Of a stretch of DNA of 64,000 nucleotides, positions 1 to 21,475 are shown piece after piece. This DNA comes from Candidatus Sumerlaeia bacterium. GTDB lineage: Bacteria; Sumerlaeota; Sumerlaeia; MVZB01. Below the pieces are notes generated by a model. The model was not told the DNA's origin and made no database searches. It saw nothing but the letters and a program-made list of their open reading frames with translations. A program made the position numbers and the translations under genes. The number at the start of each line of letters is the position of its first letter. The first letter of the stretch is position 1. Location of the stretch: positions 6,380 through 70,379 of the forward strand of contig CAUZJO010000004.1 of NCBI GenBank assembly GCA_963580245.1, in the 5' to 3' direction.

Positions 1-559
1 GGCAGATGACCAGCGCCACCGAGCCGGCCAGGCCGTCCATGTTGTCGAGCAAATTAAAGGAATTCGTCAGCACAAGCACCCACAGGGCCGTGGCCAGCCA
101 TCCGATGGGGCCGGGAAGGAATCCGCGGATCGTGATGTCGGCGCCCACCAGGGGGACGACCGCGAGGAGCTGGACGGCCAGCTTGGTCTTCGGCCCCAGG
201 GGTCGCAGGTCGTCGGTCAAACCGAGCGCAAAGACCACCCCCGCGCCCCCAAGGACCGCCCATACCTGAACGCGGATGCCGGCGATGTTCTCGAGATACG
301 GCCCCAGCGCCGACAGACCGGCGGGCAAGCGCGAGGCAAGCGCATCCGCCCCGATCATCCCCCCGGCCACCAGCAATCCGAACGTGGCGAAGATGCCCCA
401 ACCGCCGGTCATCGCGATGGCCCGATCGTGCGCCTTGCGGCCCTCGGGCTGGTCGAGCAACCCCCAGATTCGCCCCAAGCGGCGGGCGACCGCGCACAGG
501 ACCGCCGACAGCGTCAAAGCGACGAGAAAAACGGCGATGTAGAGAACCAGCCAATGCAT
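1..559 (-). CDS. Glycosyltransferase family 4 (MraY/WecA-like UDP-sugar phospho-transferase), 3' end truncated by window edge
   Basis: Reverse-strand translation from ATG at 557-559 gives MHWLVLYIAVF...VLTNSFNLLDNMDGLAGSVALVIC. The NxxNxxDGxDGL motif and the multiple TM helices are typical of MraY/WecA. The ORF runs off the left edge. Confidence 0.72.
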   Translation of the reverse strand, partial: MHWLVLYIAVFLVALTLSAVLCAVARRLGRIWGLLDQPEGRKAHDRAIAMTGGWGIFATFGLLVAGGMIGADALASRLPAGLSALGPYLENIAGIRVQVWAVLGGAGVVFALGLTDDLRPLGPKTKLAVQLLAVVPLVGADITIRGFLPGPIGWLATALWVLVLTNSFNLLDNMDGLAGSVALVIC

Positions 560-1025
560 GGTATTGCGAGTTGGATGCTTTCAAGCTCACGGTGATCCCA
601 TAAACCCATGCAGCTTGACAAAACACCCCTTTGATGGCAAGCGCGACGCGGTTGAAAGGCAATGGGACGCAGATTTTACGGATTGGGCGGATTTTCACGG
701 ACCAAGCCCGGCGTCATGAAGCCAGCCAAAACGATCTCGCGCCATAATCAAGATGGGGACGACGATGAGGGCGAATACCTTAAAGGCACCTCTAAAAATT
801 CAGTCCCGGCAGGGACGATTGCTTTCAGCCCGCCACGCAAGTGGCGGGAAATCAAACCAATAAAGAATTGGAGTCCCATCGGGACGACCGCAAACCGGAT
901 TTTTAGAGGTTCCATTAAGCATGTTTAATAGATCTCAAACGCCAATGCGGCGGGTGCTGAGATTCTGAACAATCATTCCAGCCCAAACAAGACCATGCCT
1001 GAAATCCGCCGTGCCGATAGCTCGC

Positions 1026-6390: not shown

Positions 6391-7984
6391 TCAATTGAAT
6401 TGGGATCGGGCGTGCAGAATCATGTCGTGCAGCTTCTCGTGCATCGTGAGCAGCTCGAAGATGCCCACCCGGCCCCGGTAGCCGCGCTCCAGACATTCCT
6501 CGCAGCCGTCCGGCTCGAAGACCCGCTCAGGCAAGTCGGTCACGTCGAACTGCCTGGCCAGGATCGGGTCGGGCGCCGCCGGCGCGCGGCACGAGGCGCA
6601 CAAACGCCGCACCAGGCGCTGCGCAAGCACGCCTTGGATCGACGAGGCGATCAAAAAGGGCTCGACGCCCATATCCAGCAGCCGTGTCACCGCCCCCGGC
6701 GCATCGTTGGGGTGGAGCGTCGAGAAGACCAAGTGGCCGGTCAGCGCGGCGCGGATGGCGATATCGGCCGTCTCGCGGTCCCGAACCTCGCCGACCATGA
6801 TGATGTCGGGGGCCTGGCGGACGATCGCGCGCAGGCCGTGGGCGAAATCGAGCCCGCGCCGCGGCCGCACCGGGATCTGGGTGATCCCGGCGATCTGATA
6901 CTCGACGGGAACCTCGATCGTGATGATTTTCTTCTCGGGCGTGTAAATCTAGATCAGGCTGCCGTAGAGGGTGGTCGTCTTCCCGCTGCCGGTGGGGCCG
7001 CAGATCAGCAAGTCCCGTACGACCGGTGCAACAGCGATGAATAGCGCTCGCGGATCGATTCCTCCATGCCCAGGTGGGTCAGATTGAGCAGTGACTCGTC
7101 CTTGTTGAGCAGGCGCAGCACCACGCTCTCGCCATGGATGGTCGGCACGGTCGCCACGCGCACGTCGACGCGCTCACCGAGCAGGTTGACGCAGAACTGG
7201 CCGTCCTGCGGGACGTAGCGCTCGGCGATGTCCATCCCGGCCATGATCTTGACGCGTGAGATGATCGCGGACTGGAGGTGCTTGGGGGGGCGGCATCTCG
7301 TGCAGGATGCCGTCGATGCGGTATTTGATCTTGAGCTGGGCCTCGAACGGCTCGATGTGAATGTCGCTGGCACGTTGCTCGATGGCGTTGGAGACGATCA
7401 TGTTGACCAGGTTGATCAACGTCGGCTCGCGCGCCATCTCTTGGAGGTCGTGCAGGTAGATTTCCTGGTCGCCGCCGGCCTCGCCCTCGATCTTCTCCAT
7501 GCCCTCGATCATGCTCTCGACCGTGACTCCGTAGAGTTCTTGCAGGTAATGGGCGAAGTCGCTTTCGCGCGCGACGGCGAGTCGCACGGGCCGGCCCGCC
7601 AGGAATTCGAGCTCGGCGCGCACCTCGGCGGCCAGCGGGCCGGTCGCGACGCAGCGCAGATAGCCATTCTCGCCGGCCTGAGGCAGGACGCGGCTGGCCT
7701 GGGCCAGCGAGGCCGGGATCAGGTCCTTCAGCGTGGGGGCGGGGGGGCTCGGTGAGGTCCCAGAGGGGGACGTCGGCCTGGACCGCCAGTGCCTGGGCCA
7801 GTTGGTCCTCATTGATGAAATTCAGCGAGCGCATCACGGCGCCCACAAGGGGCCGGGGTTGGGCGTGGGCCTGGACGTCAAGACAGTGATCCAGCCGCTC
7901 TTGGCTGATCAGACCATTTCCCGCGAGCCAGGCGCCCAGTAACTTCTTAGCCACGATGTTCCCTTTTGGAGCCTCGATGATCAA
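6391..7984 (-). pseudogene. gspE: Type II secretion / type IV pilus assembly ATPase (GspE/PilB family), disrupted
   Basis: GspE motifs are spread over three reading frames: an N-terminal domain, RASDIHIEPFEAQLKIKYRIDGIL, VKIMAGMDIAERYVPQDGQF, the Walker A box [43 protein letters not shown] and [11 protein letters not shown]. Both frame changes coincide with G7 homopolymers (about 7284-7290 and 7741-7747). An in-frame TAG (6950-6952) follows the Walker A box. Confidence 0.8.
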
Positions 7985-8685
7985 AGCTCCTCGGCCTCAA
8001 ATAATGCGCCGAATCCTCCACGCGACAGCGACCCGCTAGCGGCGGGAGTCAGATGGAATGTTTTGCGACAACGACGACTTCCATCGCAACATCTTCAGGA
8101 GGTAGCCTCGGTTTCCGCTAAAACCGGACTTGGAACGTTCGCGATTTGGTTTGGATCGGGTGTCATGCTATCCATGATGTCCGATGATGGTCGTCCGTGT
8201 CACCCTAATCTTCAGAGTTCCCGTCCTCGCGTCCTCGGAATCGAGCCGAAGGGCCCCGAGATGGCCGGGCATCGGCGGTCATTTCTCCCGATCCCCTGGA
8301 CTTCCCCACGGGCCGACACACCTCCGACATCCGTTGCGGCAGACTCCCTCTGATGCTTGGACGCAGGAGTTATCGAAAAGTTTCACATAAAATCAAACGT
8401 TGCGTGGCACTGTTGAGCCTAGCGCGCCAGCCCCGGACTAATTCTCTTGCATCCTCGCGGCTCGATGCGGATAAACTGAAACGATTGAGCACGGTTTGGC
8501 GCCAGTCCAACCCGTTATCGGAGTGATTGAACAGCACCGTGCCGTAGGGCGGGCACGGGGGACTCACGCGCGCGTCACGGGAATTCGTGTCGGCGAACGG
8601 GTGGCCCTCCTCGGCCAGAGCTGGATTCCGCGGCTCGGCGTCGCCAATTGGGAACTCTATTCATCACGGACGAAAAAGGGCGACG

Positions 8686-10911
8686 ATGGCCCGGGCGAAG
8701 AAATCCACCGGTAACACGACCCCCTCCTCCCCGTCGGACGCCATGCCGCCAGGCGCCCAGGTCTCGCCGGGGGCGGATTTTCCCCTCAGGCTGGAGCTAT
8801 TGTTGAGGGACCCGCCCGGCCCGGCCGGCGTGGACCCATTCGTGGTGCTGAACGATGGGGGGGAGCACGCGCGCGTTTACCTGGGCCGGATCCTGGCCGG
8901 CCAGCGGACCGTGCTGCGCCACGTGGCTGTCAAACTGGCTCCGCGCCGAGGTCAGGCGTCCGGGATCGAAGGCCAAACCCTGAGCAACGCCCAGCGGCTG
9001 AGGCGCTGGGAACGCGAGTGGAAGCATTATCGCGCGATGGCCGAGGTGCCGGCCGGGGTGACGCCGGTCTATTTCATCCAGCCGGGCCAGGCACTGGCCG
9101 GCTCCGAGCCGCGTCCGCTGATCTGGCCGCCGCTCATCTTCTGCGCTCTCACCCGGTCGCTGCTCCAACCACGTTCGCGCCAGGGGGGACGGCTGAGCGT
9201 TTGCCGCGACGATTCCGTCCTGACCCAAAACGGCCTGCCGCCCCACGGAGGATCGTATACGTTCCTCTGGGACGCCGAGGCGGTTGCGGCGGGCGAGGCG
9301 CCCACGTTTTACCAAATCCCGGCCCCCGGAGCCGAGCAGACCGTCGGCCCGGCCGAGCCATTCGACGCCTGCCTGCGCGCGACCGCCGAGCTGCTGGCCA
9401 ATCCGGGCGAGCTGGTCGCTCGCGGCTCGGACGGGGGGCTGGCCCACATCGTCGAGATCGCCCGCGACTTCCCGGCCATCCTGGACGAGGAGGTGCGTAA
9501 GAAGCTGGTCGCGGAGGACCCGGTCAAGGTATTCAGCCCTTGGCACCTGGACGAGACGCCCGTGCTGGTTTTGGAGCTTAACCGCTTCCACTACGATGAA
9601 TTCTGCGACCTGCTTGGGGGAATCGAGGGCAAGACCTTCGCCACGCGTTACGGCGGTCCAAAAGCGGCCGTCGGCCAGCGCTTGCGTTTGGGCGACAGTC
9701 TGAACGGCGAGGGGTCTTCGCCCCGGCTCCTGTTCTCCGCCGACAGCACGGGGTTGGACGCGGTCGAGCGGTTCCGCCTCAAGTGGTCGCTGTTCTCCCA
9801 ACTCTGCGGCGCGACGCTGGTGTATCAGCGCCGTTGCGGCGCCCCACATCTACGCCTCTCGCCCCGCCACGTCATGGTCCAGGTCGAGCCGAGCGGCGAG
9901 GGGCTGCCCTCGTTATGGAACTTCCAGACCCGATTGATCAGCCTGGGGTCGCCGACGCTCGAAGTCGAGGGGATGGACCTGCCCGAGATCTTCGTCCCGC
10001 CGCTGGGCACCGACCCGCTCTATCAGGCCGAATTGGTGCGCAACAGTTCGTTCGGCATTGCCCAGCGCGGCGATTTCCTGCTCACGGGCGTCGAGAAAAG
10101 CAAAGCCGAGGGCCGCTCCGAGGTCGTCGCGCAAATCCATCACGAAGGCATCGGGCTGCGCTGGCTCAGCCCCAAAGACCACATGCTGGTAACGCTGGGC
10201 AAGCATCTGGTCGCCGAAGCCGAGATCGAATTCATGGCCCACTGCGATGAGAGCAAGGATTACTCGGGCCGGATCATCTATCTGAAGAGCCTCCCCCTGG
10301 AGCTGGACAAAGACAAGGTGGCGGCGCTGGAAAAGTTGAAGGGGATTCGAGTGCCCAACGCCCAGTTCCGCCTGCTGCCCACGATGCACGTCCCATGCGA
10401 TCTGTTTAGCCTGGGGATGCTGCTTTACCGCGCGATGATCGTCAACGACGGCCAGGGGATCGGCGAGGTCGCCCTGGCGCTCGACGGGCTGCGTCAGGAC
10501 CTCAATTCACTGGCGGTGGTTGAATGCGTGGAAGGCCAGGAAGCCTCCTTCTGGGAAGCCTTGCTCAGTGGCCACCGCAATCTGGACGCGGCCACGATCT
10601 TTGACCGCCCTCAGATATTCTTCCACGAACATCAGCGCGCCCCGGACCGGCCCAACGCCATCCCCAAGTGCCTGTGGCACGAGGTCATGGCGCTGGGTCT
10701 GAAGCTGGTCACGCTCAACGAGGATTTTAGTTTCTGCGCCAATCACGGTGACTACGATCCGGAGTATCCCTCGGCGCGACTGGAGCCGCTGACCCGGCGC
10801 GTGGCGGAGATGGGCCGCAAGATCGACACCGCCTTGTTCTCATTCACCGCCCGCAACGCCGAGATCCGCCAGGCCCTCGAGCATGTCGCGCCGGAGATGA
10901 CGATCTCGTGA
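8686..10911 (+). CDS. Large uncharacterised protein with degenerate protein-kinase-like catalytic motifs (candidate pseudokinase), translationally coupled to fha
   Basis: Start taken at MARAKK (8686); the ORF is open from 8587 (GTG). Residues ~400-500 align to the kinase catalytic core but with catalytic residues substituted: HLRLSPRHVMV for HRDLKPENILV, NFQ for DFG, and SFGIAQRGDFLLTG for DxWSxGxxxYELLTG. A second similar block at ~520-615 reads GIGLRWLSPKDHMLV ... DLFSLGMLLYRAM. The stop overlaps the fha ATG (TGATG). Confidence 0.55.
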   Translation: MARAKKSTGNTTPSSPSDAMPPGAQVSPGADFPLRLELLLRDPPGPAGVDPFVVLNDGGEHARVYLGRILAGQRTVLRHVAVKLAPRRGQASGIEGQTLSNAQRLRRWEREWKHYRAMAEVPAGVTPVYFIQPGQALAGSEPRPLIWPPLIFCALTRSLLQPRSRQGGRLSVCRDDSVLTQNGLPPHGGSYTFLWDAEAVAAGEAPTFYQIPAPGAEQTVGPAEPFDACLRATAELLANPGELVARGSDGGLAHIVEIARDFPAILDEEVRKKLVAEDPVKVFSPWHLDETPVLVLELNRFHYDEFCDLLGGIEGKTFATRYGGPKAAVGQRLRLGDSLNGEGSSPRLLFSADSTGLDAVERFRLKWSLFSQLCGATLVYQRRCGAPHLRLSPRHVMVQVEPSGEGLPSLWNFQTRLISLGSPTLEVEGMDLPEIFVPPLGTDPLYQAELVRNSSFGIAQRGDFLLTGVEKSKAEGRSEVVAQIHHEGIGLRWLSPKDHMLVTLGKHLVAEAEIEFMAHCDESKDYSGRIIYLKSLPLELDKDKVAALEKLKGIRVPNAQFRLLPTMHVPCDLFSLGMLLYRAMIVNDGQGIGEVALALDGLRQDLNSLAVVECVEGQEASFWEALLSGHRNLDAATIFDRPQIFFHEHQRAPDRPNAIPKCLWHEVMALGLKLVTLNEDFSFCANHGDYDPEYPSARLEPLTRRVAEMGRKIDTALFSFTARNAEIRQALEHVAPEMTIS

Positions 10912-12773
10912 TGGCCGCGAAAAAAGCTACTCCCCTGATCTGTCTGGAGGTCATCGCCGGGCCGCTCGACGGTCTGCGCTACGAGGGCAAGCAGGGCATC
11001 GTCCAGATCGGGCGCTCCGATGGGACCGGCTCCGATAAAAAGCGCAACGACCTTGTCCTCCAGCGCGACTCCTATGCCTCGAGCTTCCATGGGAGGGTCT
11101 CCCACGCCGACGGCCAGTGGACGCTGAAAGACCTCAACAGCACCAACGGCACGTGGGCGGCCGGTCGCAAGCTGGCCAAGGGGGAGCAAACCACGTTGGT
11201 CGCAGGCGAGGTCTTCGTGGTGGGGAACACGGCGATCCGCCTGGGGACCAAGTCCTCGGGTCTGCCGCCGGTCGACCCGACGGCCTCGGCGGGATTATCG
11301 CCGGCCACCCAGACCATGCTCAATCGGGCCAGGAACGTTGCCCGCGAGCAGCTAAGCCCGTGGATCGGTGCCTCGCACGTCTTTCGGGTCATCGCCGGCT
11401 CCGACGCCCCGCCGCTGCCCGAATTCTTCCAGTCCGTCCATCTGGACTCGGCGGCGACGGCCGACATTATCACTGAATTCGATTACTGGCAAGGCGAGCT
11501 GGAATGGATCGGCAGCAACGTGCTGCGCGGCAGGCGCACACCCGAACACATGCTCAAGAACGTCCTGTCGACGCCCCGACTGCAATTGATCCTGACCCTG
11601 GCCGACCGCGTTCGCGAGAGGGCTTCGGCGCCCCACGTCGAGCCGATCCACCTGCTGGCCGGTATGTTTCTGGAACCCGGCAATATCGTGGTCCTGGCGC
11701 TGTCGGCGGCGGGTTACTCGGCCGACCAGCTCGCCGCCGCGGCCAAAAAGATCATCCAGGGCGAGGAGGAGCCGGATGAAGAGGAGGATCGGGCGCCCGA
11801 GCGCGAGGCGACCGTGCAGGTGCAGTTGCCGATGCCCGCCGCGGTCAAGCAGCGCGAGGCGGTCGATCCGGAGACGTGGCTCCTTGCGCGCCAAATGATG
11901 GACCGGCTGCAGTCGGTTCAAAACGAGTATCACATGGCCGAGCCCGAGGCGCGCTTCGAAGCGATCTGCAAGGCCGCGCGAGAGGGCCTGCAGAAGGCCC
12001 CGCCCGCCAAGCGCCTGGCGATCGTCGACGAACTCCATTATCTCTTCCCCGTGCTCGAAGAAGCCCTGGCGCCTCCTCCCTCGATCTTCGCGGAGGCGCC
12101 CAAGGAGGCTCCGGTCGGGCCGGCGGAAACGACCGACAGCCACCCGGAGCCCGATAACATGCCCGACATGGCCGCGGCGAGTGACGAGCTGGAAACGGGC
12201 GTGGACACCGATTATCTGCTCAATCAGATCTTCGGCAGCGAGAAGATCGCCCAGTCGATCAGCGAGATGGACGAGAGGAACAGCTTTCTGCGGCTGATGC
12301 AGCACCTTTATACGTTCGCGTTGGAGATGGAGCAGCTCGCCAAGGGGCTGGTCCAGTCGTTGCAGGGCGGCGCCGGGGGCGAATCGCGCTACTTCCTGCC
12401 CTTCACGGCCCACGATCTGCGCATGATGGTGCAGAAGATACTGGAGGATAAAGACGAGAGGGAGACGGTGGGAAATATCCGCCTCTACCTCTATGATCTG
12501 AGCAACTGGATCGTGGCGCTGGTGGCGGCCCACCAGAAGGCCACCAGCCAGTGGTACGGGGAGCTGTGGGAGCGCATCAGCCCGTTGGCGATCCAGGACG
12601 AGGCCAAAATCTCCTCACTCAACAAAGCCCTGGGCCAGAGCAAGGCGGAGCTGTGGAAGACCTATGAGCAGGTGGCCGTGGACCTCAAACCCGAGATCGT
12701 CGAGGACGAGTTCAACGAACGGATCGGCAAGCTGGTCACCGAGGAGTTCCGCCGCATGAGCTCTCGCGGCTGA
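10911..12773 (+). CDS. fha: FHA domain protein (T6SS Fha/TagH-like) with Clp_N-like repeats
   Basis: N-terminal FHA domain signature: GRSDG...NDLVLQRDSYASSFHGRVSHADGQWTLKDLNSTNGTWAAGRKL. Two Clp-N-like repeats follow (IGASHVFRVIAG; HVEPIHLLAGMFLEPGNIVVLALSAAGYS). The gene sits immediately upstream of tssJ-tssK-tssL-tssM, as fha1 does in P. aeruginosa H1-T6SS. Confidence 0.8.
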   Translation: MAAKKATPLICLEVIAGPLDGLRYEGKQGIVQIGRSDGTGSDKKRNDLVLQRDSYASSFHGRVSHADGQWTLKDLNSTNGTWAAGRKLAKGEQTTLVAGEVFVVGNTAIRLGTKSSGLPPVDPTASAGLSPATQTMLNRARNVAREQLSPWIGASHVFRVIAGSDAPPLPEFFQSVHLDSAATADIITEFDYWQGELEWIGSNVLRGRRTPEHMLKNVLSTPRLQLILTLADRVRERASAPHVEPIHLLAGMFLEPGNIVVLALSAAGYSADQLAAAAKKIIQGEEEPDEEEDRAPEREATVQVQLPMPAAVKQREAVDPETWLLARQMMDRLQSVQNEYHMAEPEARFEAICKAAREGLQKAPPAKRLAIVDELHYLFPVLEEALAPPPSIFAEAPKEAPVGPAETTDSHPEPDNMPDMAAASDELETGVDTDYLLNQIFGSEKIAQSISEMDERNSFLRLMQHLYTFALEMEQLAKGLVQSLQGGAGGESRYFLPFTAHDLRMMVQKILEDKDERETVGNIRLYLYDLSNWIVALVAAHQKATSQWYGELWERISPLAIQDEAKISSLNKALGQSKAELWKTYEQVAVDLKPEIVEDEFNERIGKLVTEEFRRMSSRG

Positions 12774-12965
12774 GGGCGGGCGACATTTCCATGGTTGGCG
12801 TTTTTCGCAACCCGTATATTTTAACGGGGAGAGGGAAATGCGGGCTAAAAAGGGACACTGGCGTTGTTGATCCTGATTACGAATAATGGCGGGCGTTGAA
12901 CAGGCGCGAGTTCCGCCCCCCCCAGGCGCGTGGACTCGGGGGCCAAGACCCACCGGGAGGATGGC

Positions 12966-13499
12966 ATGATGAAGCGGCACGTTTGTCTTTTGTTGGCACT
13001 GGCCTTGACCGCGGCCGGCTGCAAGAGCGTTCCGATCAAGACGCGTGAAATCCTCTTTTATCGGTCCGATGACCTCAATGACGGCCGTCCCTGCGCCGTC
13101 GATATCATCTATCCGAGAGACTACGAGCAGTTTCAGGAGATCACGCGCGAGATCGGCCCCGAGAAATGGTTCAAGAGCGACCTCTATGATCGCGTGTATA
13201 AAGACGATCCCTGGCTGGAGCGCAAGATGACCCGTGCGCGGCTCGATGTGAAGGTGCCCGAGGATGAATACATGGTCATCTTCGCCGAGTTCAGTAATCC
13301 CGACCCCAATCCCCCGCGTGGGCATCGCGCCTACCTGGTCTATGAGGAAGAAATGCAGCCCAAGGCCAAGAAAACCGAATACATCTGGGTCCACGATGGC
13401 AGTCTGGAGCGGCTGCGCAAAAAGCCCAAGCGGATGCGGCGCGACCGGGACCGTGACCGGAGGGGCCGGGATCGGGATAGCGACCGGGACAAGGATTGA
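12966..13499 (+). CDS. tssJ: T6SS outer-membrane lipoprotein TssJ (SciN family) with RD-repeat C-terminal tail
   Basis: Lipobox LLLALALTAAGC. DLNDGRPCAVDIIYPRDYEQF matches the TssJ/SciN core (LNPDxNGRPxPVxVRxYxL). Small size and the position before tssK are consistent. The C-terminal tail is RRDRDRDRRGRDRDSDRDKD. Confidence 0.65.
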   Translation: MMKRHVCLLLALALTAAGCKSVPIKTREILFYRSDDLNDGRPCAVDIIYPRDYEQFQEITREIGPEKWFKSDLYDRVYKDDPWLERKMTRARLDVKVPEDEYMVIFAEFSNPDPNPPRGHRAYLVYEEEMQPKAKKTEYIWVHDGSLERLRKKPKRMRRDRDRDRRGRDRDSDRDKD

Positions 13500-13665
13500 T
13501 CGGCCCAACCCCTGGGCCGTTAACGGAGAATTCTTCGTACTCGTAACTCGTAACTCGTAATCGAACATTCTCGATCATCGAGAGAAGAACGGAACATCGA
13601 TTACGAATTACGAGCACGAGCACGAAGGTGAGCATGAGAGTAGGGGACTTGAGGTAAGGCGGACG

Positions 13666-15033
13666 ATGAGCGAGTTCATGGAGATCAACTGGGGCGAGGG
13701 GATGTTTTTGCGGCCCCACCACTTGCAGCAATTCAGCCGCTATCGGCGGATCGCGTTGCAGCGCGAGATCGCCATGTCGCGGCCCTTCGCTTACGGCGTC
13801 CAGGAGATCAACATCTCGACGGCCGAACTCGAGGGTTTCGTCTTCTCGATCCGCTCGTGCAATATCCGGCTCAAGGACGGCACGCGCATCATGGCGCCGC
13901 ACAACGGCGAGTTCGAGCCGCGTGATTTCAAAAAGGAATTGGACGCGGCCGCCGGCGTGCTCGACGTCTGCGTCGGCGTGCCGCTGCTGATGGAACGCGA
14001 ACCCAACACGCTAACGATGTCCGAGGAGTCCACCCTCTATCACCGCCGCTACAAGGCGATGGTCGTCGAAGTGGTCGACGAGAACACCGGAGCCAACGGC
14101 CAGGCCATCGAGATGCGCAAGTTGAGCCCGCGCATTTTGTTCAAGGGCGAGGACATGGCCGGCTATGAGGTGATGCAAGTCGCCCGCATCGAGCGTTCGG
14201 GGTTCGAGGACAACAAACCGATCCTCTCGCAAAACTTCATCCCATCGATCCTGGTCATGGAAGCCTGGCCGCCGCTGTTCGATTACTGCAAGGACATCTA
14301 CCAGCAACTGATGGCCAAGAACCGCTCGCTGATCAGTCAGATCGCGGGGCGCAAGATCGCGTTCGGTTCGGAGGGGGTCGGCGGCCCCGAGGCGATGCTC
14401 AAGCTCAACATCACCAACCGCTACGCCGCCTTCCTGCGCCAATGGACGAGCATGCCCAACCTGCATCCGTTCGACGTGTTCGTCGAGCTGTGCCGCCTGG
14501 CGGGGGACCTGGCAATCTTTGATGAATCGCGCTCGGTGCCCGATATCCCGCTCTATAACCACGACGACCTGGGCGGCTCGTATCTCGACCTGCTGCGCGT
14601 CCTTGAGCGACTGATCAACAACATCCTGCCGACCACGTTCATCAAGCGGCGCTTCGAGCCCGTCGAGAACCGTCGCGAGGTGGCCCTGGAGGACGAATGG
14701 CTGCTGCCCGAAGTCGAGTTCTACCTGTGCATCGAGAGCGATCAGGACGACGACAAGATCGACCGGGAAGTCTCGTTCCTGAAGATGGGTTCGGTCGAGG
14801 ACCTGCCCACGCTGATCAACCGCCGCCTACCGGGGTTGATGCTGCGCCGGATTCGGCGCACCCCGATCGGCTTGCCCGACCGGCCCAATTACCACTTCTA
14901 CCGTATCTCGCGCGAGGGCCGGTTCTGGGACAGCTTGCTCGAGACCAGAGTGCTCTCGGCCTATGGCCTGGCCGACGAAACGCTCGAACTGGACCTGTAT
15001 ATCTTGCTTAGACCGGAGAAGGAGGGGGAATGA
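13666..15033 (+). CDS. tssK: T6SS baseplate subunit TssK
   Basis: N-terminus INWGEGMFLRPHHLQQFSRY matches the TssK hallmark (WxEGxFLxPQHFQQ). The length (455 aa) and the position between tssJ and tssL also fit. Confidence 0.85.
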   Translation: MSEFMEINWGEGMFLRPHHLQQFSRYRRIALQREIAMSRPFAYGVQEINISTAELEGFVFSIRSCNIRLKDGTRIMAPHNGEFEPRDFKKELDAAAGVLDVCVGVPLLMEREPNTLTMSEESTLYHRRYKAMVVEVVDENTGANGQAIEMRKLSPRILFKGEDMAGYEVMQVARIERSGFEDNKPILSQNFIPSILVMEAWPPLFDYCKDIYQQLMAKNRSLISQIAGRKIAFGSEGVGGPEAMLKLNITNRYAAFLRQWTSMPNLHPFDVFVELCRLAGDLAIFDESRSVPDIPLYNHDDLGGSYLDLLRVLERLINNILPTTFIKRRFEPVENRREVALEDEWLLPEVEFYLCIESDQDDDKIDREVSFLKMGSVEDLPTLINRRLPGLMLRRIRRTPIGLPDRPNYHFYRISREGRFWDSLLETRVLSAYGLADETLELDLYILLRPEKEGE

Positions 15034-15181
15034 CGGGGCAATCGGCCACCGCCGCCCATCCCCGGAACCCCGTCGTGAAACATATCGTGCTCGTAACTCG
15101 TAATCGAAATCCCGGTCATGCTCCAATGCTTGAGACCGTCCCATTACGAATTACGACCACCGACCGGCCAGGGGTGATTCG

Positions 15182-16084
15182 ATGACGCTGAATGAATTGG
15201 CCTCGGACCTGTTCCTGTTTCTGGTCACGTTCCGCCGCCAGGTCCGCAAAGGCCTGATCCCCGACATCTATCAGGTCCGCTCGCAACTGCTCGAGATCTT
15301 CGAGACCCAGCAGCAGCGCGCAAGCGAGGATCCCAAACTCGAAAAGCAATACCAAAAGGGGCGCTATCCGTTGGTGGTGACCGCCGATGAGATACTGATC
15401 AACGCCAACTGGGCCTATTCCAGTCAGTGGGAGGACGAGATCCTCGAGTACGAGTTCTTCAAGACGCGCATCGCCGGCGAGAAGTTCTTCGAGACCATCG
15501 AAGAACTCGGGGACGAAGACGACTCGGTCGCTGAAATCCTCTATCACTGCCTGGCGCTGGGTTTCGTGGGGCGTTACAAGGGGGACGCCGAGGAACTTCG
15601 CCGGCTCAAGCGCCGCCTGTATCGGATGCTCCCCGGACGCGTGGGCGAGGACGATAAACGCATCTCGCCCGACGCCTATTTCGTCGCCGAGGGGGTCAAG
15701 GACATCTACAAACCACTGATGAACCTGACCCGCATCGTGCTCATCTGCGGGACGCTCCTCATCGTCTTGTGGATCGGGTTCTTCTATTACCGCACCTTCG
15801 TCATCCCGAGTAAGATCAAGGAATTCGCCAAGGAGATGCGCCAGGCCGCCGCCCCCGGCGGATACGTCCTGGATGACGATGATGAAAACGAAGAGGAGGA
15901 GGATGAAGACGAGGACGAGGCGGATGATTTCTTCGCGCTCAAGGACGAACAGGATGAGGATGAGGACGAAGAATCCTCGGAAAACGATGACGACGCCGAT
16001 GACGTGAGTTCCGATGAAGACGATGACGGCGAAGACGAGGACGAAGACGAAGACAAGGACGAGTTGGGTGATTTGTTTGGTTAG
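15182..16084 (+). CDS. tssL: T6SS membrane protein TssL (DotU/IcmH family) with hyper-acidic periplasmic tail
   Basis: DotU core LYHCLALGFVGRYKG, a single TM (IVLICGTLLIVLWIGFFYY), then a ~95 aa D/E-rich tail. TAG stop. Confidence 0.75.
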   Translation: MTLNELASDLFLFLVTFRRQVRKGLIPDIYQVRSQLLEIFETQQQRASEDPKLEKQYQKGRYPLVVTADEILINANWAYSSQWEDEILEYEFFKTRIAGEKFFETIEELGDEDDSVAEILYHCLALGFVGRYKGDAEELRRLKRRLYRMLPGRVGEDDKRISPDAYFVAEGVKDIYKPLMNLTRIVLICGTLLIVLWIGFFYYRTFVIPSKIKEFAKEMRQAAAPGGYVLDDDDENEEEEDEDEDEADDFFALKDEQDEDEDEESSENDDDADDVSSDEDDDGEDEDEDEDKDELGDLFG

Positions 16085-16185
16085 AACCTCATCGCCGAAC
16101 GCATCGCCCGTGCTTGGGGCGTGTTGAACAGTTGGGTATGAATGTCGTGAGGCTGAAAATTGGATCGATCGGGGTGTAAACGGAA

Positions 16186-19100
16186 ATGCTCGCGCAATTA
16201 GCGAACCAGCCAATCCTCTATCGCTTTATGGCCGGGGGCTCGATGGCCATCGCCGTGATCGCGGTGATCGGCCGCTTTTTCGGCTGGACGATCGCGGGGC
16301 TGCTGATCGGCGGCTTGTTGATTGCCGCCGCCGTCATGTGGTTTTTCAACAAAGGCATCAAGCTTAAGCGCAAGAAGAAGGCCAGTGCTTTTGACAAGGG
16401 CCTGCAGGCCGACGCCGGCAAGGCCGGCCACGGCAAAGCCGAACAGCGCAAGGCCCAAGGCGAGATCTATCAGCGCTGGAACCAGGCCGTCACCGAACTC
16501 AAGCGCGGCGGCCTGAACCTCTATGATCTGCCCTGGTATTTGCTGATCGGCGAGCCCCAATCGGGCAAAAGCACCACGCTGCGCCACTCCGGCCTGGAGT
16601 TCCCCGTGGGGACCGAAGCCCTTTCGGGTGCCGGCGGCACACGCAATTGCGATTGGTGGTTCACCAACGAGGCCGTCATCCTCGACACCGCCGGTCGCTT
16701 CACCTTCCAGGAAAAAAACGCCCCCGACGCCGATGAATGGAAAAGCTTCCTCAAGTTGCTCAAGAAGAACCGCCCCGCCTGCCCGATCAACGGGGTGGTC
16801 GTGACCATCCCGCTGACCTCGCTGCTGGGCGATTCGCCCGAAGAACGGGAAGACAAGGCACGTAACCTGCGCGAGAAACTGACCGAAATCCAGCGCGAAT
16901 TGGAAGTCCAGTTCCCGGTCTTCATCCTGCTGACCAAGTCCGACCAAATCCTTGGTTTCACCGAGTTCTTTTCGCGGCTGGGTGCGACCGAACAGCGCCA
17001 GTTGCTCGGCTGGTCGATGCACGGCCCGTTCATCCAGGCCTACGACCCCGACAAGTTCAAGGAGGTCTTCGACAGTCTCTATCAACGCATCCACAAGTGG
17101 CGCAACAAGATCATCGGCGAGGACCTGAGCCTGACCGAGGTCGATAAACTCTACGTCTTCCCCGAGGAATTCAAGTCGGTCCGCGATCCCTTGCACGACT
17201 ACCTCAAATCGGTCTTCGTCAAGACGCACTACCTGCCGCCGCTGTTCTTCCGCGGCTTCTATTTCACCAGCGGCATGCAGACGGGCCAGCCGATTGCCAA
17301 GGCCTGCGCGCAACTGCTGCGCAGGGCCGGTGAGGGCGCCGACGAGATCGTCGAGCACCTGCAAAAGATCTTCGAACGTTCGCGCGCCTTCTTCATCCGC
17401 GACTTCTACATCGAAAAACTCTTCCCCGAGCGCAACCTAGTCATCCATTCCGAGAAGAAGATGAAGATGGGGCGCAAGGTGGGGATGCTGGCGGTGTGGG
17501 GCGGCGCGGCCTTGTTGCTGCTGACCATGCTGTTCATCGTCTGGCGCGGCATCATCCTAAGCCGGGGCGTGGGCGGGATCGAGCAGGCGGCCAAAGTCGT
17601 CAAACGCGAGTTCATCTCGGACGTGAGCGCGGCCCGCCGCGACGATCCCGAACCCAAGGAGACCGAGGACGCGGCCGAGGCCGTCAAAACGGCCTCTGAA
17701 TTCCATGACAAGTCCGAAAAGACGGTTGAAAAGATCGGTAGCCTGGCCCCCTATCTGCGCGACATGTATTTCCTGTACTTCTTGCAGAACAGCCTGCGAG
17801 ACCAGGGCCAGGCGCTCTACACCCAACTGGCGGCGACCGAGCCCGGGGCGAGCGCCGATGATGAGGCGATCAATCGACTCTATCGAGACTACGTCCGCCT
17901 GTGGAGCCTCAACCCGATCTGGGAGGCGCACGCGCTCGCTGATGAGGGAAGATTCAAGAAGGCCGGGTCTTTCAAGTACTCATCGATGATGCAGTCGGGC
18001 GTCACGGACAAAACGCAAGAGACGTTCCAGGACAATCTGGAGCGGCTGCGCGATATTCTCGGCGATAAGAAGGAATCACCCAACTTCGAGAAGTATCCGG
18101 TCGCCATCCCAATCGTTCCGGGTCACGTGAACCCCAAACGCAACGACGTGATCCGAAAAGAGATCGAGCACATCAAGGATAGCTTCAACCCCGTCGAGCA
18201 GGACACCGTGAATCGGGTCGTCGGGCGGGCTTCGGGGATACGTGAACTCTACGCTTCGGCCGTCGTCGGCCTGTTCAGCGTCCCATGCGGCTACCCCGAC
18301 CCCGACACCGATCCCTTCACCGACGCGCGCAATTCGATCGGGCGCATCCGCGACGCGATCCGCTCGCTCGATGAAGTCCTGGCAGCCAACGAGGACCTGG
18401 GCGGTGCCATGGTGGTTGATGAGGCCGGGATCAAGGCAAAGTTTTTGGAACTGACCTGGGTCAAGGGCACTCTCAAGAAAAGCGAGGCCAGGGATGATCT
18501 GAGGGACTACATTCTCGAATCCATTCAAGAGGTCAACGAGCGGTTCAGAGACCATGCCCAAAAGGCCAAGCAACCGCTCGAAGCAGTCGGCGACGTCATC
18601 GGCGGCGATCCGCTTGGCCTCAGCGAAGGTCTCGGGATGGCTGGCGACGGCCTGGACATGATCGAGGCGCTCGCCGAGGCCCAGAACACGATGGTGGTCA
18701 ACGTACGCGAGCGTAAACCGAAAAACCCCGACGAAGTCGATCAGACCCTCAAGGAATGGCGCGGGAATGACGCGCGGATCGCTGCGGAGAGCTGGGCCAC
18801 GCAGGCCGCCGGCAGGGTGGACCTGCCCGCCACCTGGCAGCTTCCCACCCTGGGCAACTCGGTGGGGCAGATGGTCCGGCAAAGCGATGAAGCAGTCCAC
18901 GTCGAAGCGTGGCTGGCCTACATGCGCAACGTCCAACCGGGCGTCCTGCTTTCGGGCAGCCAGATTTCCCGGGCCTCGCTCGGTGGCGATCCCCCGCCGG
19001 GGGCCACGGCCGAACGGGTCAAGAGCGCCAACGACGAATTGGCCGACCTGGCCGCGCAACTGAGCCAGTTTCGCGAGGGGATCGAGTGCGACAACAACCG

Positions 19101-20388
19101 CCAACGCGTGCGCGGGCGCATGGAGAGCATCGCCGGGGTCATCAACGCCAACAAGAACAATTTCAGCGGCTATTGGATGAAGGCTTTCGACCGCTGGCAT
19201 CCGGCCGGATGGATCGAATCGATTTCGAGTTGGAAGGCGTTCAAGCAGGACGACCTGATGCAGGGCACGGCCCTTTCGCAGCGCGTCAAGCAGGACCTCC
19301 AACGCCTGGTGGCCCACGTCAAGAACTACAAGGACACGGTCGGATCGGTCGGCAAGCTCGAGTCCATTTACTCGGACTTGCGGCAGTTCGTCACCCCCGG
19401 ATCGGCGTTGGAGAATAACGCCAACCTTTTCTCCGGCACCATCGAAGAGATGGAACTGAATGAGCTCGGGGCGCGGTTGCAACTCGAGGAGCCGGGCCAG
19501 GGCGGCATGACGCGGGCCGAGGCGATCGAGAGCATCGCCGAGCGCAGTTCCTCGCTCAATAGCAAGTTCAGGCCCTACCCCGACAAGGTGCGCGCGCTGC
19601 TGGGCGACCCCACCGAGCAATTCGAGCATGAACTGGGACAATTCCTGGCCAAATGGTCCAAGGCCCTGGCCGGTAAGTTCCCGTTCGCGGTGCCCGCCGA
19701 CCAGGTCGTGGTCGAAGCGGCGTCGATGGATATCCCCCAAGTCGACGCCAAATTGCTGCGTGACTTCTATTACGGCCCCGACAGCCTGGAGGCGTTCCTC
19801 GGCAAGTACGGCCCGATCTATGAGAAATGGTCGGACAAACCGGCGAACGAGGCGGCCAAGGATTTCTTCGACCAATGCCTCAGGCTCAAGGACTATTTCC
19901 TTGACCCCGGCGTCAAAGACTACCGCAAACTGCAACTGGAAGGGACTTACATCGGGTTCGTGGGTAAATCGACCGACGACCTGCGTCAGATCAGCGAAGT
20001 CATCCGACTACTCTTGCCGACCTCTTCCACCGAACGCAAAGTGGCCCGCTGGCGATCTCAGGTCGAAGGCGACAAGACCGCGTTTGAATGGACCCCCGGC
20101 GACTATGGCGAGGAGGGATTCCTGGTCTTCGAGTCCAAGCTCGAACGCGGCGATCGACCCAACAAGGCGGAGTTGCGCGTGGGCGGCGACTTCTCGGTCC
20201 TGGCCTACATCGTGACCCAGGTCAACGGCGTGCCCGAGGTCGAGCGGCGCAAGTGGCCGGTCAATTTCTCGGTCCAGCCCGAAAACAGCAAACAGGATCA
20301 GCGCTACATGATCAGTTTCGTCTTCGTGTTCGAAAACAGCCTGCCGCGCCTGCCCGATTGGGGAGATGTTGCAAAGTGGACGAAATGA
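16186..20388 (+). CDS. tssM: T6SS membrane complex protein TssM (IcmF family)
   Basis: Two N-terminal TM helices, then the Walker A region LYDLPWYLLIGEPQSGKSTTL (IcmF NTPase hallmark), a third TM near aa 430 and a large periplasmic domain. 1400 aa. Confidence 0.85.
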   Translation: MLAQLANQPILYRFMAGGSMAIAVIAVIGRFFGWTIAGLLIGGLLIAAAVMWFFNKGIKLKRKKKASAFDKGLQADAGKAGHGKAEQRKAQGEIYQRWNQAVTELKRGGLNLYDLPWYLLIGEPQSGKSTTLRHSGLEFPVGTEALSGAGGTRNCDWWFTNEAVILDTAGRFTFQEKNAPDADEWKSFLKLLKKNRPACPINGVVVTIPLTSLLGDSPEEREDKARNLREKLTEIQRELEVQFPVFILLTKSDQILGFTEFFSRLGATEQRQLLGWSMHGPFIQAYDPDKFKEVFDSLYQRIHKWRNKIIGEDLSLTEVDKLYVFPEEFKSVRDPLHDYLKSVFVKTHYLPPLFFRGFYFTSGMQTGQPIAKACAQLLRRAGEGADEIVEHLQKIFERSRAFFIRDFYIEKLFPERNLVIHSEKKMKMGRKVGMLAVWGGAALLLLTMLFIVWRGIILSRGVGGIEQAAKVVKREFISDVSAARRDDPEPKETEDAAEAVKTASEFHDKSEKTVEKIGSLAPYLRDMYFLYFLQNSLRDQGQALYTQLAATEPGASADDEAINRLYRDYVRLWSLNPIWEAHALADEGRFKKAGSFKYSSMMQSGVTDKTQETFQDNLERLRDILGDKKESPNFEKYPVAIPIVPGHVNPKRNDVIRKEIEHIKDSFNPVEQDTVNRVVGRASGIRELYASAVVGLFSVPCGYPDPDTDPFTDARNSIGRIRDAIRSLDEVLAANEDLGGAMVVDEAGIKAKFLELTWVKGTLKKSEARDDLRDYILESIQEVNERFRDHAQKAKQPLEAVGDVIGGDPLGLSEGLGMAGDGLDMIEALAEAQNTMVVNVRERKPKNPDEVDQTLKEWRGNDARIAAESWATQAAGRVDLPATWQLPTLGNSVGQMVRQSDEAVHVEAWLAYMRNVQPGVLLSGSQISRASLGGDPPPGATAERVKSANDELADLAAQLSQFREGIECDNNRQRVRGRMESIAGVINANKNNFSGYWMKAFDRWHPAGWIESISSWKAFKQDDLMQGTALSQRVKQDLQRLVAHVKNYKDTVGSVGKLESIYSDLRQFVTPGSALENNANLFSGTIEEMELNELGARLQLEEPGQGGMTRAEAIESIAERSSSLNSKFRPYPDKVRALLGDPTEQFEHELGQFLAKWSKALAGKFPFAVPADQVVVEAASMDIPQVDAKLLRDFYYGPDSLEAFLGKYGPIYEKWSDKPANEAAKDFFDQCLRLKDYFLDPGVKDYRKLQLEGTYIGFVGKSTDDLRQISEVIRLLLPTSSTERKVARWRSQVEGDKTAFEWTPGDYGEEGFLVFESKLERGDRPNKAELRVGGDFSVLAYIVTQVNGVPEVERRKWPVNFSVQPENSKQDQRYMISFVFVFENSLPRLPDWGDVAKWTK

Positions 20389-20503
20389 CGGGGAAGAAGC
20401 TATGGGCATTGATGGGTATTGAAAATTTGAAACGATCAATGAACCCATCAAGGTTGAATCCCCGCGCCGTGCGGCTACATTAACGTCACGAAAGCAAACG
20501 CCG

Positions 20504-21475
20504 ATGGGAATGTTTCAAAGCCTTAAGGACCGGTTCTTTTCGCGGCACGACGGGGCGATCGAGGACTTTGTGCTGGCCGCCTATGGCAAATTGCCGATCT
20601 ATAAGGACTATATTATCTGGGAATGTTACCACGGCGGGGCGGCGGAGTTTAAACAGTGGATGGATGAGACGTTCGGGTTGCAATGGGAAGAGTTCGACGG
20701 CAAGAACGCGCGCTTGGCCGGCCCCTGCCGCGCGATGCTGCTGATGCCCGGGGGGCGCAACGTCGTGGCCGTCTCGATGTGGCCATCGGCCGATGAGGGC
20801 AACATGCGCAAGTTCCCGTTCGCGCTGTTCGCGTGCTTCAATCGCGGCGAGATCGTCGGACTCGGTCTGCGCGGCGCGCTCGAGGCCCTCGATCCGGTCT
20901 GGCGGGCGCTCGAGGCCGAGTATGACCAGGTGCGCCACTGCGCCAATATCGAGGACCTCTATAGTTATTTCCAACGCTCGGCTCCCCAGGCCGAGCCGCC
21001 CGCCGAGGACCCCGCCGAAAAGGAACTGCCCCTGGCCGATTGGTTCGAGGCCATCTATCCCGGCCAGGCGGGCACCCTGCGCAAGTGGCTTGACAGCGAA
21101 CTTCAGATGGCCCTGGACGCGTACCGCGGGTTCCCCGAACAGGGCGAGTCGCTCGCCGCGCGCCTCCCGATCGCGCGCGACCTGAGCTTCTCCCGACAGG
21201 CCGAGTTCTGGGAACAGCTCTTCAAGCAAAACCTCAAGCGCTGCCCCGCCATCCCCAGCGTGGTGATTGACCTAAGCGGCCAAGACGGCCCCGCCGCGAT
21301 GAACCTGGCGTGGCGCGACCTCAAGCGCGAAGACGGTCGCCTGTTCGCCATGAAGTACGAAGACTACGAGCACCTTGAAAACCTCACTCCCGACGCCCCT
21401 CCGCGCGGCTCGGGCGAGGATATCGACCCCGACCTGACGATCGAAAAGTGGATCGCCGGCTTCGCGGAGCCGTAA
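20504..21475 (+). CDS. tagF: T6SS-associated protein TagF-like (DUF2094)
   Basis: N-terminal AAYGKLPIYKDYI resembles the TagF GFFGKLPxxGDF motif. It directly follows tssM, as in tssM-tagF arrangements. Confidence 0.55.
   Translation: MGMFQSLKDRFFSRHDGAIEDFVLAAYGKLPIYKDYIIWECYHGGAAEFKQWMDETFGLQWEEFDGKNARLAGPCRAMLLMPGGRNVVAVSMWPSADEGNMRKFPFALFACFNRGEIVGLGLRGALEALDPVWRALEAEYDQVRHCANIEDLYSYFQRSAPQAEPPAEDPAEKELPLADWFEAIYPGQAGTLRKWLDSELQMALDAYRGFPEQGESLAARLPIARDLSFSRQAEFWEQLFKQNLKRCPAIPSVVIDLSGQDGPAAMNLAWRDLKREDGRLFAMKYEDYEHLENLTPDAPPRGSGEDIDPDLTIEKWIAGFAEP

Follow-up and report, generated by a model that had tools for sequence, protein, structure and literature searches.

In a T6SS locus of a Candidatus Sumerlaeia bacterium, a protein with the fold of a protein kinase has lost four catalytic residues, and its gene overlaps that of an FHA-domain protein in an arrangement that recurs, in places as a covalent fusion, across a bacterial protein family. 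The protein, referred to here as the pseudokinase, is probably a non-catalytic scaffold or switch that binds TagH (Fha) and was derived from a PpkA-like kinase. The locus lies in the window, the 64,000-nucleotide stretch of DNA that was analyzed (Table 1). The family comprises at least 904 cluster representatives from the Sumerlaeota, Planctomycetota, Nitrospirota, and Alphaproteobacteria, and every sequence used comes from a metagenome assembly. To judge from these sequences, it is large, uncharacterized, T6SS-specific, and descended from an active Ser/Thr kinase. In this family, TagH has a conserved kinase-fold partner, to which it is sometimes covalently fused. The first-pass annotation had supposed such a protein to be undescribed, and it is indeed absent from a 2026 review on the accessory genes of the T6SS (PMC13584744) and from a 2025 catalogue of bacterial pseudokinase families (PMC12599244).

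Table 1. Features of the pseudokinase gene and the adjoining T6SS locus (positions in the window).
Feature	Position	Strand	Remarks
Pseudokinase gene	8686..10911	+	741-aa kinase-fold protein; stop codon counted in
Kinase N-lobe (~aa 30-160)	8773..9165	+	beta1-beta3, helix C, beta4-5; predicted secondary structure
Insert 1 (~aa 161-345), between beta5 and helix E	9166..9720	+	Degenerate Cys-cluster (zinc-ribbon-like) and helical subdomain
Dead catalytic loop, H388-L-R390-L-S392-P-R-H395	9847..9870	+	Profile alignments to twitchin, LAMMER kinases and PknB
DFG equivalent, I418-S419-L420-G421 (Asp to Ser)	9937..9948	+	Aligned to kinase IDFG/MDFG
Insert 2 (~aa 459-565), beta-rich	10060..10380	+	Between APE-like Y446-Q-A-E449 and helix F
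Helix F (PCDLFSLGMLLYR, D572 invariant) and helical rest of C-lobe	10381..10908	+	
FHA-domain protein (divergent TagH/Fha)	10911..12773	+	Pfam FHA PF00498, 3.4e-11; start overlaps pseudokinase stop
Small lipoprotein in TssJ slot	12966..13499	+	Lipobox LTAAGC
TssK	13666..15033	+	PF05936, 4.6e-78
TssL (DotU)	15182..16084	+	PF09850, 8.1e-38
TssM (IcmF-related)	16186..20388	+	PF14331, 2.6e-64
TagF-like protein	20504..21475	+	PF09867 1.3e-05, TIGR03373 4.2e-06; both under curated cut-offs

The kinase fold and its catalytic positions

The 741-residue product is identical to a public hypothetical protein (P0001). By itself it has no sequence match in Pfam, NCBIfam, or the PDB, even at E<=10, and its homology to kinases is transitive, by way of the family and a predicted structure. 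The first-pass annotation had recognized kinase-like motifs, and structure prediction bore out the fold. The AF2 model built with 95 homologues (pLDDT 91.4, pTM 0.92; an earlier run with 10 close homologues reached a pLDDT of 53.9) contains a bilobal kinase fold, with a beta-rich N-lobe and helix C followed by a helical C-lobe with helices E and F. A Foldseek search with the full model returned no significant match. As modeled, the fold is that of a complete Hanks (eukaryotic-type) kinase, interrupted by two family-specific inserts.

Profile comparisons connect the family to known kinases. Nine of the 10 PDB matches of the family profile (A2) are kinases, aligned at the helix E/HRD/DFG region and at helix F. 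A profile of the active-like subclade has 179 PDB matches at E<=1, and 60 of 60 among the matches listed are kinases, the best being twitchin kinase (E=1.3e-5). Three relatives, P0051, P0044, and P0059, match Pfam Pkinase at profile positions 102-153 with E-values of 7e-6 to 6e-4; the match of P0051 (7e-6) scores below the gathering cut-off. In addition, hhalign aligns PknB with the family (probability 81.5%, E=1.1e-5), pairing HRDVKPAN with HLRLSPRH and MDFG with ISLG.

These alignments uphold part of the original motif reading, in which three of five assignments proved spurious. The earlier equation of HLRLSPRHVMV (residues 388-398) with HRDLKPENILV holds both in the family profile and in the alignment to PknB, and the motif is conserved in orthologues. 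In contrast, NFQ (412-414) is not the DFG motif, since N412 is unconserved and DFG aligns to ISLG (418-421). Similarly, the stretch SFG...FLLTG (455-468), previously read as helix F, is placed by the model at the start of the inserted beta-rich domain, in strands 459-471. A second kinase block had also been proposed. Its first element, LRWLSPKDHMLV (491-502), lies inside the beta insert and is no second catalytic loop, but the other, CDLFSLGMLLYR (571-582), is the true helix F and carries the DxWSxG motif, with D572 and G577 essentially invariant throughout the family. Instead of a repeated block, there is one kinase domain with two inserts.

At the six catalytic sites, the window protein reads K83, E111, R390, S392, H395, and S419. 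The beta3 Lys (K83, in VAVK; nt 8932-8934) and the helix-C Glu (E111; nt 9016-9018) are retained, are conserved within the clade, and occur in 57 of 95 family members, their equivalence having been assigned by motif and strand order rather than by residue-level superposition. The substitution of key catalytic residues is confirmed: the HRD Asp is R390, the loop Lys S392, the loop Asn H395, and the DFG Asp S419. Because the Lys-Glu pair is kept while these four residues are lost, the designation as a pseudokinase is supported. Relatives read HLDLKPEN at the catalytic loop and IDL[AG] at the DFG site, where the Asp column of the 95 family sequences holds D in 39, G in 37, and S in 11. The Gly-rich loop (NDGGEH, in L55-N-D-G-G-E-H-A-R-V-Y) is degenerate and does not conform to GxGxxG; only one of its Gly columns, G59, is conserved in the family (57/95). 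On this evidence, we infer that the window protein lacks phosphotransfer activity. R390, H395, and S419 are nonetheless invariant among orthologues at 41-64% identity, and together with the retained Lys-Glu pair this could reflect an unconventional activity rather than none.

Both inserts carry conserved positions of their own. The helical subdomain of insert 1 holds the conserved HYDEFCDLLGG, and its cysteine cluster, which has nine conserved Cys columns in the family, is reduced in the window protein to C153 and C173. In the model, insert 2 forms strands at 459-471, 478-485, 499-504, 514-520, 530-535, and 555-564. Its D498 is near-invariant (146 of 150 aligned representatives), and Foldseek gives weak matches to FAD-type beta-barrels. 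The C-lobe ends in a C-terminal extension with the motifs RPNAIP and ARNAE. The maximum 19-residue hydropathy of the protein is 1.25, within helix F, and no transmembrane segment was found; a Pfam scan detected neither VWA nor any other domain. Rfam, promoter, and terminator scans of the 700-nt intergenic region 5' of the gene yielded nothing notable. The 727- and 742-aa proteins encoded upstream of the gene in two related loci (L001 and L012) were considered as paralogues and rejected, the hhalign probability being below 1%.

The FHA partner and the T6SS locus

The pseudokinase and FHA genes overlap as the first-pass annotation had described. The TGA of the former (10909-10911) overlaps the start codon of the latter, whether this is the ATG at 10911 or the GTG at 10908. 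The FHA protein retains the canonical pThr-binding residues (G34-R35, S57, H60, and N79), and the corresponding GR, SxxH, and N(G)T positions are likewise retained in the FHA partners. Its relationship to TagH is distant: it matches TIGR03354 weakly (35 bits, where the cut-off is 120), has no Pfam match to T6SS_FHA_C, and aligns weakly at its C-terminus with TagH C-terminal regions (hhalign probability 53%, E=1.4e-4, 72 columns).

The lipoprotein in the TssJ slot has no detectable similarity to the bona fide TssJ proteins of two related loci (L012 and L018), where the equivalent gene matches Pfam T6SS-SciN (TssJ). Its position is kept in three others (L004, L006, and L008). The TagF-like gene occupies the same slot as the TagF_N genes of related loci.

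This organization is conserved well beyond the window. A homologue search with the 95-sequence alignment returned the close clade alone, and the narrower alignment A4 was used to find related loci. In every related locus with enough flanking sequence, the gene lies directly upstream of fha/tagH, so the association with fha extends to other genomes. The order pseudokinase-FHA-(TssJ-like)-TssK-TssL-TssM-TagF recurs in Sumerlaeota relatives (50-57% identity), and pseudokinase-TagH(FHA+T6SS_FHA_C)-TssJ-TssK-TssL-TssM in Planctomycetota and Nitrospirota. One genome has the pseudokinase-FHA pair with no tssJKLM nearby. Moreover, the kinase-fold protein is fused to FHA in nine of about 150 representatives, most of them with T6SS_FHA_C, and the fused gene fills the same slot in the T6SS cluster as the separate genes.

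Catalytic decay within the family

Motif statistics were taken from the best 150 matches of a query-biased profile. The Asp/Asn/Asp set is intact in 12 of 148 representatives (about 8%), the HRD Asp is missing in 101, and both Asp residues are missing in 64. In related lineages, G, A, N, H, or R takes the place of the HRD Asp. The full K/E/D/K/N/D set survives in a minority of relatives, which may therefore act like PpkA. At the other extreme, the Nitrospirota copies lack the entire N-lobe. The family thus offers a natural series, from intact kinase through point-mutated pseudokinase to a remnant consisting of the C-lobe, which could reveal which part of kinase-FHA signaling is needed for T6SS firing.

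The catalytically intact long forms occur in T6SS clusters with no FHA gene within 10 kb, and therefore the family is not strictly FHA-dependent. One of these forms, P0044, has no BLASTP match to the window FHA protein; at the profile level, the resemblance of its C-terminal extension to the C-terminal regions of TagH is no more than suggestive (probability 64%). The alignment of the clade contains no invariant Thr that could act as an FHA ligand. A conserved [ST]-N motif before helix C was considered as a pTxx[ILV] ligand and rejected: a helix N-cap is the likelier role, and the window clade does not retain the motif.

Proposed role and relation to known systems

The gene overlap, adjacency, and nine fusions suggest that the pseudokinase binds TagH. 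The protein would be soluble and cytoplasmic, with a decayed zinc-ribbon and helical insert before helix E and a beta-rich insert before helix F, and it would be co-translated with TagH/Fha. Most likely, the two proteins would act jointly in the cytoplasm to license or nucleate the building of the TssJ-TssL-TssM membrane complex and of the TssK baseplate, with TagF counteracting them. Contact with the FHA domain could be phospho-dependent, by way of a kinase acting in trans as proposed for MviN-FhaA, or phospho-independent, as for EssB-EssC. A broader interpretation can be put forward only tentatively. The family, with the window protein as its founding example, may be a widespread, unrecognized group of T6SS accessory proteins, "TagH-coupled kinases/pseudokinases," that constitutes a second, wholly cytoplasmic threonine-phosphorylation checkpoint. 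An ancestral active kinase with zinc-ribbon and beta-barrel inserts might have been fused to the TagH C-terminal assembly domain. Its kinase activity would then have died repeatedly, through point substitutions or deletion of the N-lobe, to leave an obligate FHA-bound scaffold or switch for TssJLM/TssK assembly, and the re-constrained dead pocket (R390, H395, S419) and D498 might now serve as new ligand or partner sites.

Three other explanations compete with a non-catalytic scaffold or switch. The protein might be an atypical kinase or another nucleotide-dependent transferase that relies on K83/E111 together with R390 and H395 for a non-canonical, possibly metal-independent reaction modifying TagH, TssL, or itself. 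The clade-wide conservation of the Lys-Glu pair, the invariance of the three replacements, the pThr-binding residues of the FHA partner, and the lack of another kinase among the scanned window ORFs would all suit such an enzyme, and precedents for active "pseudokinases" and metal-independent ATP binding have been reviewed (PMC12599244). It is nevertheless unlikely. The four phosphotransfer and Mg2+-binding residues have all been lost together and the Gly-rich loop has degenerated, while related lineages vary the catalytic positions freely and Nitrospirota members have dispensed with the N-lobe altogether. The residue losses, free variation, and N-lobe deletion argue that the conserved function of the family is likely independent of catalysis.

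Alternatively, the protein might be a purely structural T6SS subunit, for instance a cytoplasmic adaptor between the TssL/TssM membrane complex and the TssK baseplate, whose kinase ancestry is irrelevant, which plays no part in regulation or phospho-signaling, and whose adjacency to TagH reflects co-assembly only. This is consistent with co-encoding with tssJ, tssK, tssL, and tssM in related loci, with the location of the most conserved residues outside the active site (D498, D572, and HYDEFxDLLGG), and with the Nitrospirota forms that consist of the C-lobe. It is rather improbable, since the one pseudokinase-FHA pair without tssJKLM stands apart from these genes and the fusions are specifically to FHA/TagH, with none to TssK, TssL, or TssM. 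Furthermore, most studied T6SSs lack the family and assemble without it (PMC13584744), which marks it as accessory and not as part of the core. Finally, the kinase-like motifs could be a chance resemblance in an unrelated protein, as the missing direct database matches, the Foldseek result, and the spurious motif assignments might imply, but this is refuted by the PDB kinase matches of the subclade profile and the PknB alignment and is scarcely credible.

One known system close to the scaffold or switch proposed here is the threonine phosphorylation pathway of PpkA (TagE) and Fha1 (TagH), which operates in the T6SSs of Pseudomonas, Agrobacterium, and Serratia. As with PpkA, the pseudokinase has a Hanks-type fold and its gene adjoins that of TagH within a T6SS cluster, with TagF present in the window locus. 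Unlike PpkA, it has neither a transmembrane helix nor a periplasmic (vWA-type) sensor domain, contains two large inserts, and is undetected by Pfam Pkinase. Catalytic residues are missing from the window member and from roughly 90% of representatives. The first-pass annotation had noted that ppkA and pppA are missing, and the window ORFs scanned contain no Hanks-kinase motif, Pkinase domain, or PP2C domain of the PppA/TagG type. Frequent fusion to TagH is a further difference; to our knowledge, no PpkA-TagH fusion has been reported. The pseudokinase may substitute for PpkA, as first suggested. The family bears on how FHA/TagH triggers T6SS assembly, a question that is sharpest for the many systems in which TagH occurs without PpkA.

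Pairing of a bacterial pseudokinase with an FHA protein has a parallel in Mycobacterium tuberculosis, where, as Gee et al. (2012; cited in PMC3953482) reportedly found, the MviN (MurJ) pseudokinase recruits FhaA after phosphorylation in trans by a real kinase. MviN functions in cell wall synthesis, is fused to a membrane flippase, and has a defined pThr site, whereas the window clade alignment shows no conserved Thr. EssB/YukC is described as a degraded, non-catalytic kinase-fold scaffold of type VIIb secretion that works with the FHA domains of EssC (PMC12599244; 10.1101/2020.05.09.085852). The pseudokinase resembles it as a dead kinase fold in a secretion machine with an FHA-domain partner. 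In contrast, EssB resides in the membrane in Gram-positive T7SSb and is degraded at all three catalytic motifs, while the window protein is soluble and T6SS-linked, retains the Lys-Glu pair, and differs in its inserts; between the two, no sequence relationship was detected.

Seven families of bacterial pseudokinases have been catalogued, ActPs1-3, GLW, CP1, DYD, and DLHK, none of them tied to the T6SS or FHA (PMC12599244). They share with the present family a derivation from Ser/Thr kinases and degraded motifs, and CP1 and DLHK are also soluble. As published, GLW carries GLW in place of HRD along with a transmembrane segment; DLHK is helicase-linked and is missing the beta3 Lys, though not the HRD Asp; CP1 is always fused to COG3899; and DYD is a membrane-bound family of Gram-positive bacteria with a beta3 Arg (PMC12599244). 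Set against these published descriptions, the pseudokinase differs in motif states, domain partners, and membrane topology. It would represent an eighth bacterial family, overlooked by profile-based kinome surveys because Pfam Pkinase fails to detect it.

Kinase-like fold of the window protein

The window protein, identical to the public hypothetical protein P0001, has an alternative GTG start at 8587 that gives a longer reading, but orthologue N-termini favor the ATG at 8686. On its own it has no Pfam, NCBIfam or PDB sequence match, even at E ≤ 10, and the relatives recovered by a word-indexed search numbered just 10, each a metagenome protein of Sumerlaeota type with 41-64% identity. An exhaustive profile search of 1.84 billion cluster representatives recovered 904 proteins at E ≤ 1e-3, of which 155 reach E ≤ 1e-30. 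Family members are mostly about 700 aa long, with some of about 450 aa and some of about 1100 aa.

When the family profile was compared with the PDB, nine of the ten matches were kinases, aligned at helix E, HRD, DFG and helix F. The profile of an active-like subclade gave 179 PDB matches at E ≤ 1 (best E, 1.3e-5), and among the matches listed all 60 were kinases. In addition, three relatives, P0051, P0044 and P0059, match positions 102-153 of Pfam Pkinase (E = 7e-6 to 6e-4, below the gathering score). The PknB kinase domain aligned with the family in hhalign (probability 81.5%, E = 1.1e-5), placing HRDVKPAN opposite HLRLSPRH and MDFG opposite ISLG. The kinase fold suspected in the first-pass annotation is also given by the secondary structure of the predicted model, and the window protein is predicted to have this fold. 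All of the evidence is computational and drawn from metagenome assemblies, and the structure is a predicted one.

The domain anatomy, read from the secondary structure of the predicted model and the family alignments, is collected in the table. The model predicts one kinase domain rather than two, and the protein is soluble, with no transmembrane segment. Based on this anatomy and the alignments, the first-pass annotation was therefore right to read HLRLSPRH as an HRD-like loop, in agreement with both the PknB and the PDB alignments, and right about DLFSLGMLLYR, which coincides with helix F. Its other three motif assignments have to be revised: the DFG equivalent is ISLG and not NFQ, helix F is not SFG...LLTG, and residues 491-502, taken for a second catalytic loop, lie inside the beta-rich insert 2.

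Most relatives carry nine conserved Cys columns in insert 1, in a zinc-ribbon-like arrangement, and the window protein retains two of the nine. Insert 2 weakly resembles FAD-type beta-barrels. D572 in helix F and D498 in the beta insert are conserved more strongly than any other residue of the family. The latter (codon 10177-10179; conserved in 146 of 150 aligned representatives) lies outside the kinase core, and we know of no counterpart in kinases.

Features of the window genes (nucleotide positions) and of the pseudokinase gene product (residues)
Feature	Position	Strand	Remark
Pseudokinase gene	8686-10911	+	uninterrupted ORF, 741 aa
FHA/TagH-like gene	10911-12773	+	PF00498
TssJ-slot lipoprotein	12966-13499	+	lipobox LTAAGC
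N-lobe	residues ~30-160		VAVK83 and helix-C E111
Insert 1	residues ~161-345		
Helix E	residues 357-384		
Catalytic loop	residues 388-395		
DFG equivalent	residues 418-421		
APE-like Y-Q-A-E	residues 446-449		
Insert 2, beta-rich domain	residues ~459-565		
Helix F	residues 569-585		PCDLFSLGMLLYR
Helical C-lobe remainder and C-terminal extension	residues 586-741		

State of the catalytic residues

The window protein has K83 and E111 and may still hold the Lys-Glu bridge. That key catalytic residues are substituted, as noted at first reading, is confirmed: R390 stands at the HRD Asp, S392 at the loop Lys, H395 at the loop Asn and S419 at the DFG Asp, and the Gly-rich loop is degenerate. The replacement residues are invariant across the clade of close relatives. 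Among the best 150 matches of a query-biased profile, 148 representatives have the catalytic region aligned. Asp/Lys/Asn/Asp is intact in seven of these and Asp/Asn/Asp in 12, while the HRD Asp is gone in 101, the DFG Asp in 95 and both in 64. From these alignments, the family is predicted to be kinase-derived and predominantly non-catalytic, and the window protein to be a pseudokinase. The main rival, that K83/E111 and a re-constrained R390/H395 pocket support an unconventional enzymatic activity, seems unlikely.

The Nitrospirota copies (L014-L021; for example, L018 9968-11308) are about 450 aa long and comprise the C-lobe half only (profile positions ~285-725), with no separate N-lobe ORF found within 10 kb. 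At one of these loci, L021, two ORFs take the place of the single family gene, which may reflect a frameshift or a pseudogene.

Genomic linkage of the predicted pseudokinase to TagH

As initially noted, the pseudokinase gene overlaps fha: its TGA stop (10909-10911) shares bases with the start of the next gene, at ATG 10911 or GTG 10908, which encodes an FHA domain (PF00498, 3.4e-11). The reported absence of ppkA and pppA also holds, with no Pkinase or PP2C domain in the window ORFs scanned and no canonical HRDxKxxN, DFG or DxWSxG in a six-frame motif scan of the window. In Sumerlaeota relatives (50-57% identity) the gene order is identical, pseudokinase-FHA-small ORF-TssK-TssL-TssM-TagF; at one related locus, L001, the pseudokinase-FHA pair occurs by itself, with no tssJKLM. 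When one genome per species was scanned, 14 loci with a family gene emerged, from Sumerlaeota, Nitrospirota (Manganitrophaceae among them), Planctomycetota and one alphaproteobacterium. TssK-TssL-TssM lie about 1.8 kb downstream in every scanned locus with enough flank, and the intervening genes in the loci examined are TagH (FHA plus T6SS_FHA_C) and TssJ. The first-pass observation is confirmed in part, and its interpretation as a pseudokinase next to fha is supported.

Nine of about 150 representatives among the best matches are pseudokinase::FHA fusions, most with T6SS_FHA_C, whose sole annotation is "FHA domain-containing protein [Planctomycetota]". The HRD Asp is absent in all nine, and one lies at precisely the corresponding position in a complete T6SS cluster. 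P0044 and P0051, long forms with an intact catalytic set (~1100 aa; L022 10001-13339 and L023 10001-13213), lie inside T6SS clusters beside TssJKLM, with no FHA gene found within 10 kb. Their C-terminal extension of about 300 aa gives a suggestive alignment with the TagH C-terminal region (hhalign probability 64%, E = 6.6e-5, 211 columns), which suggests kinase::TagH-C fusions bypassing FHA. The window genes overlap, and the family shows invariant TagH adjacency, recurrent fusion with TagH and an exclusive T6SS context, with no FHA gene within 10 kb of the intact long forms. The FHA partners in all lineages retain the Gly-Arg, Ser-x-x-His and Asn that bind phosphothreonine in characterised FHA domains.

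The PpkA-Fha1 module is closest in working to the proposed pseudokinase-TagH module; the pseudokinase differs from PpkA in kinase profile, catalytic residues, transmembrane and periplasmic domains and PppA partner. The EssB/YukC-EssC and MviN-FhaA pseudokinase-FHA scaffolds are alike in logic but unlike in sequence and topology. Among the T6SS accessory genes tabulated in a 2026 review (PMC13584744) there is no pseudokinase, and of the Tag components belonging to the T6SS itself TagE/PpkA alone is of Ser/Thr kinase type. Compared by published descriptions, none of the seven bacterial pseudokinase families in a 2025 review (PMC12599244) matches in motifs, partners or taxa. A full-text literature search, which covered few subscription journals, found no prior description of the family. 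Sequence and model support a putative kinase/FHA control module of the T6SS that is cytoplasmic, insert-bearing, mostly dead and TagH-fused.

In such a module, the pseudokinase would bind TagH and serve as a scaffold or conformational switch coupling it to the TssJLM membrane complex and TssK baseplate assembly, with TagF as the antagonist of this assembly. The ancestral protein would have been an active PpkA-like kinase. Neither an invariant Thr in the clade alignment nor a kinase in the window was found, so the FHA contact may be phospho-independent, by analogy with EssB-EssC, or may, like that of MviN-FhaA, rely on a kinase whose gene lies elsewhere.

The T6SS operon and its surroundings

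After the FHA gene, a TssJ-slot lipoprotein, TssK, TssL, TssM and a TagF-like protein follow on the same strand. The operon (8686-21475) contains membrane-complex and regulatory genes only, and no sheath, tube or baseplate genes (TssA/B/C/E/F/G, Hcp, VgrG, ClpV) occur within the 64 kb. T6SS_FHA_C is undetected by Pfam in the window FHA/TagH-like protein. Between its FHA domain and C-terminal region lies a weak Clp_N-like segment (residues ~242-283; PF02861, E = 0.0015, below cut-off), and its orthologues give the same weak match. The TssJ-slot lipoprotein has no Pfam match and no detectable similarity to bona fide TssJ. Its C-terminal tail is an unusual Arg/Asp repeat, RDRDRDRRGRDRDSDRDKD, and orthologues occupy the equivalent position at three related loci (L004, L006 and L008).

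The operon is flanked by Planctomycete-type PSD1/PSCyt2/DUF1501 genes, sulfatases and housekeeping genes. A non-coding gap of about 700 nt (7985-8685) lies 5' of the pseudokinase gene, with no Rfam match and with promoter and terminator pattern counts not above shuffled sequence. Divergent to the operon is an ORF at 7079-7984 (-) with an N-terminus similar to an MshE-type cyclic-di-GMP-binding motif (NF053729; score 28.3 bits, cut-off 38), which could tie the T6SS operon to a second messenger.
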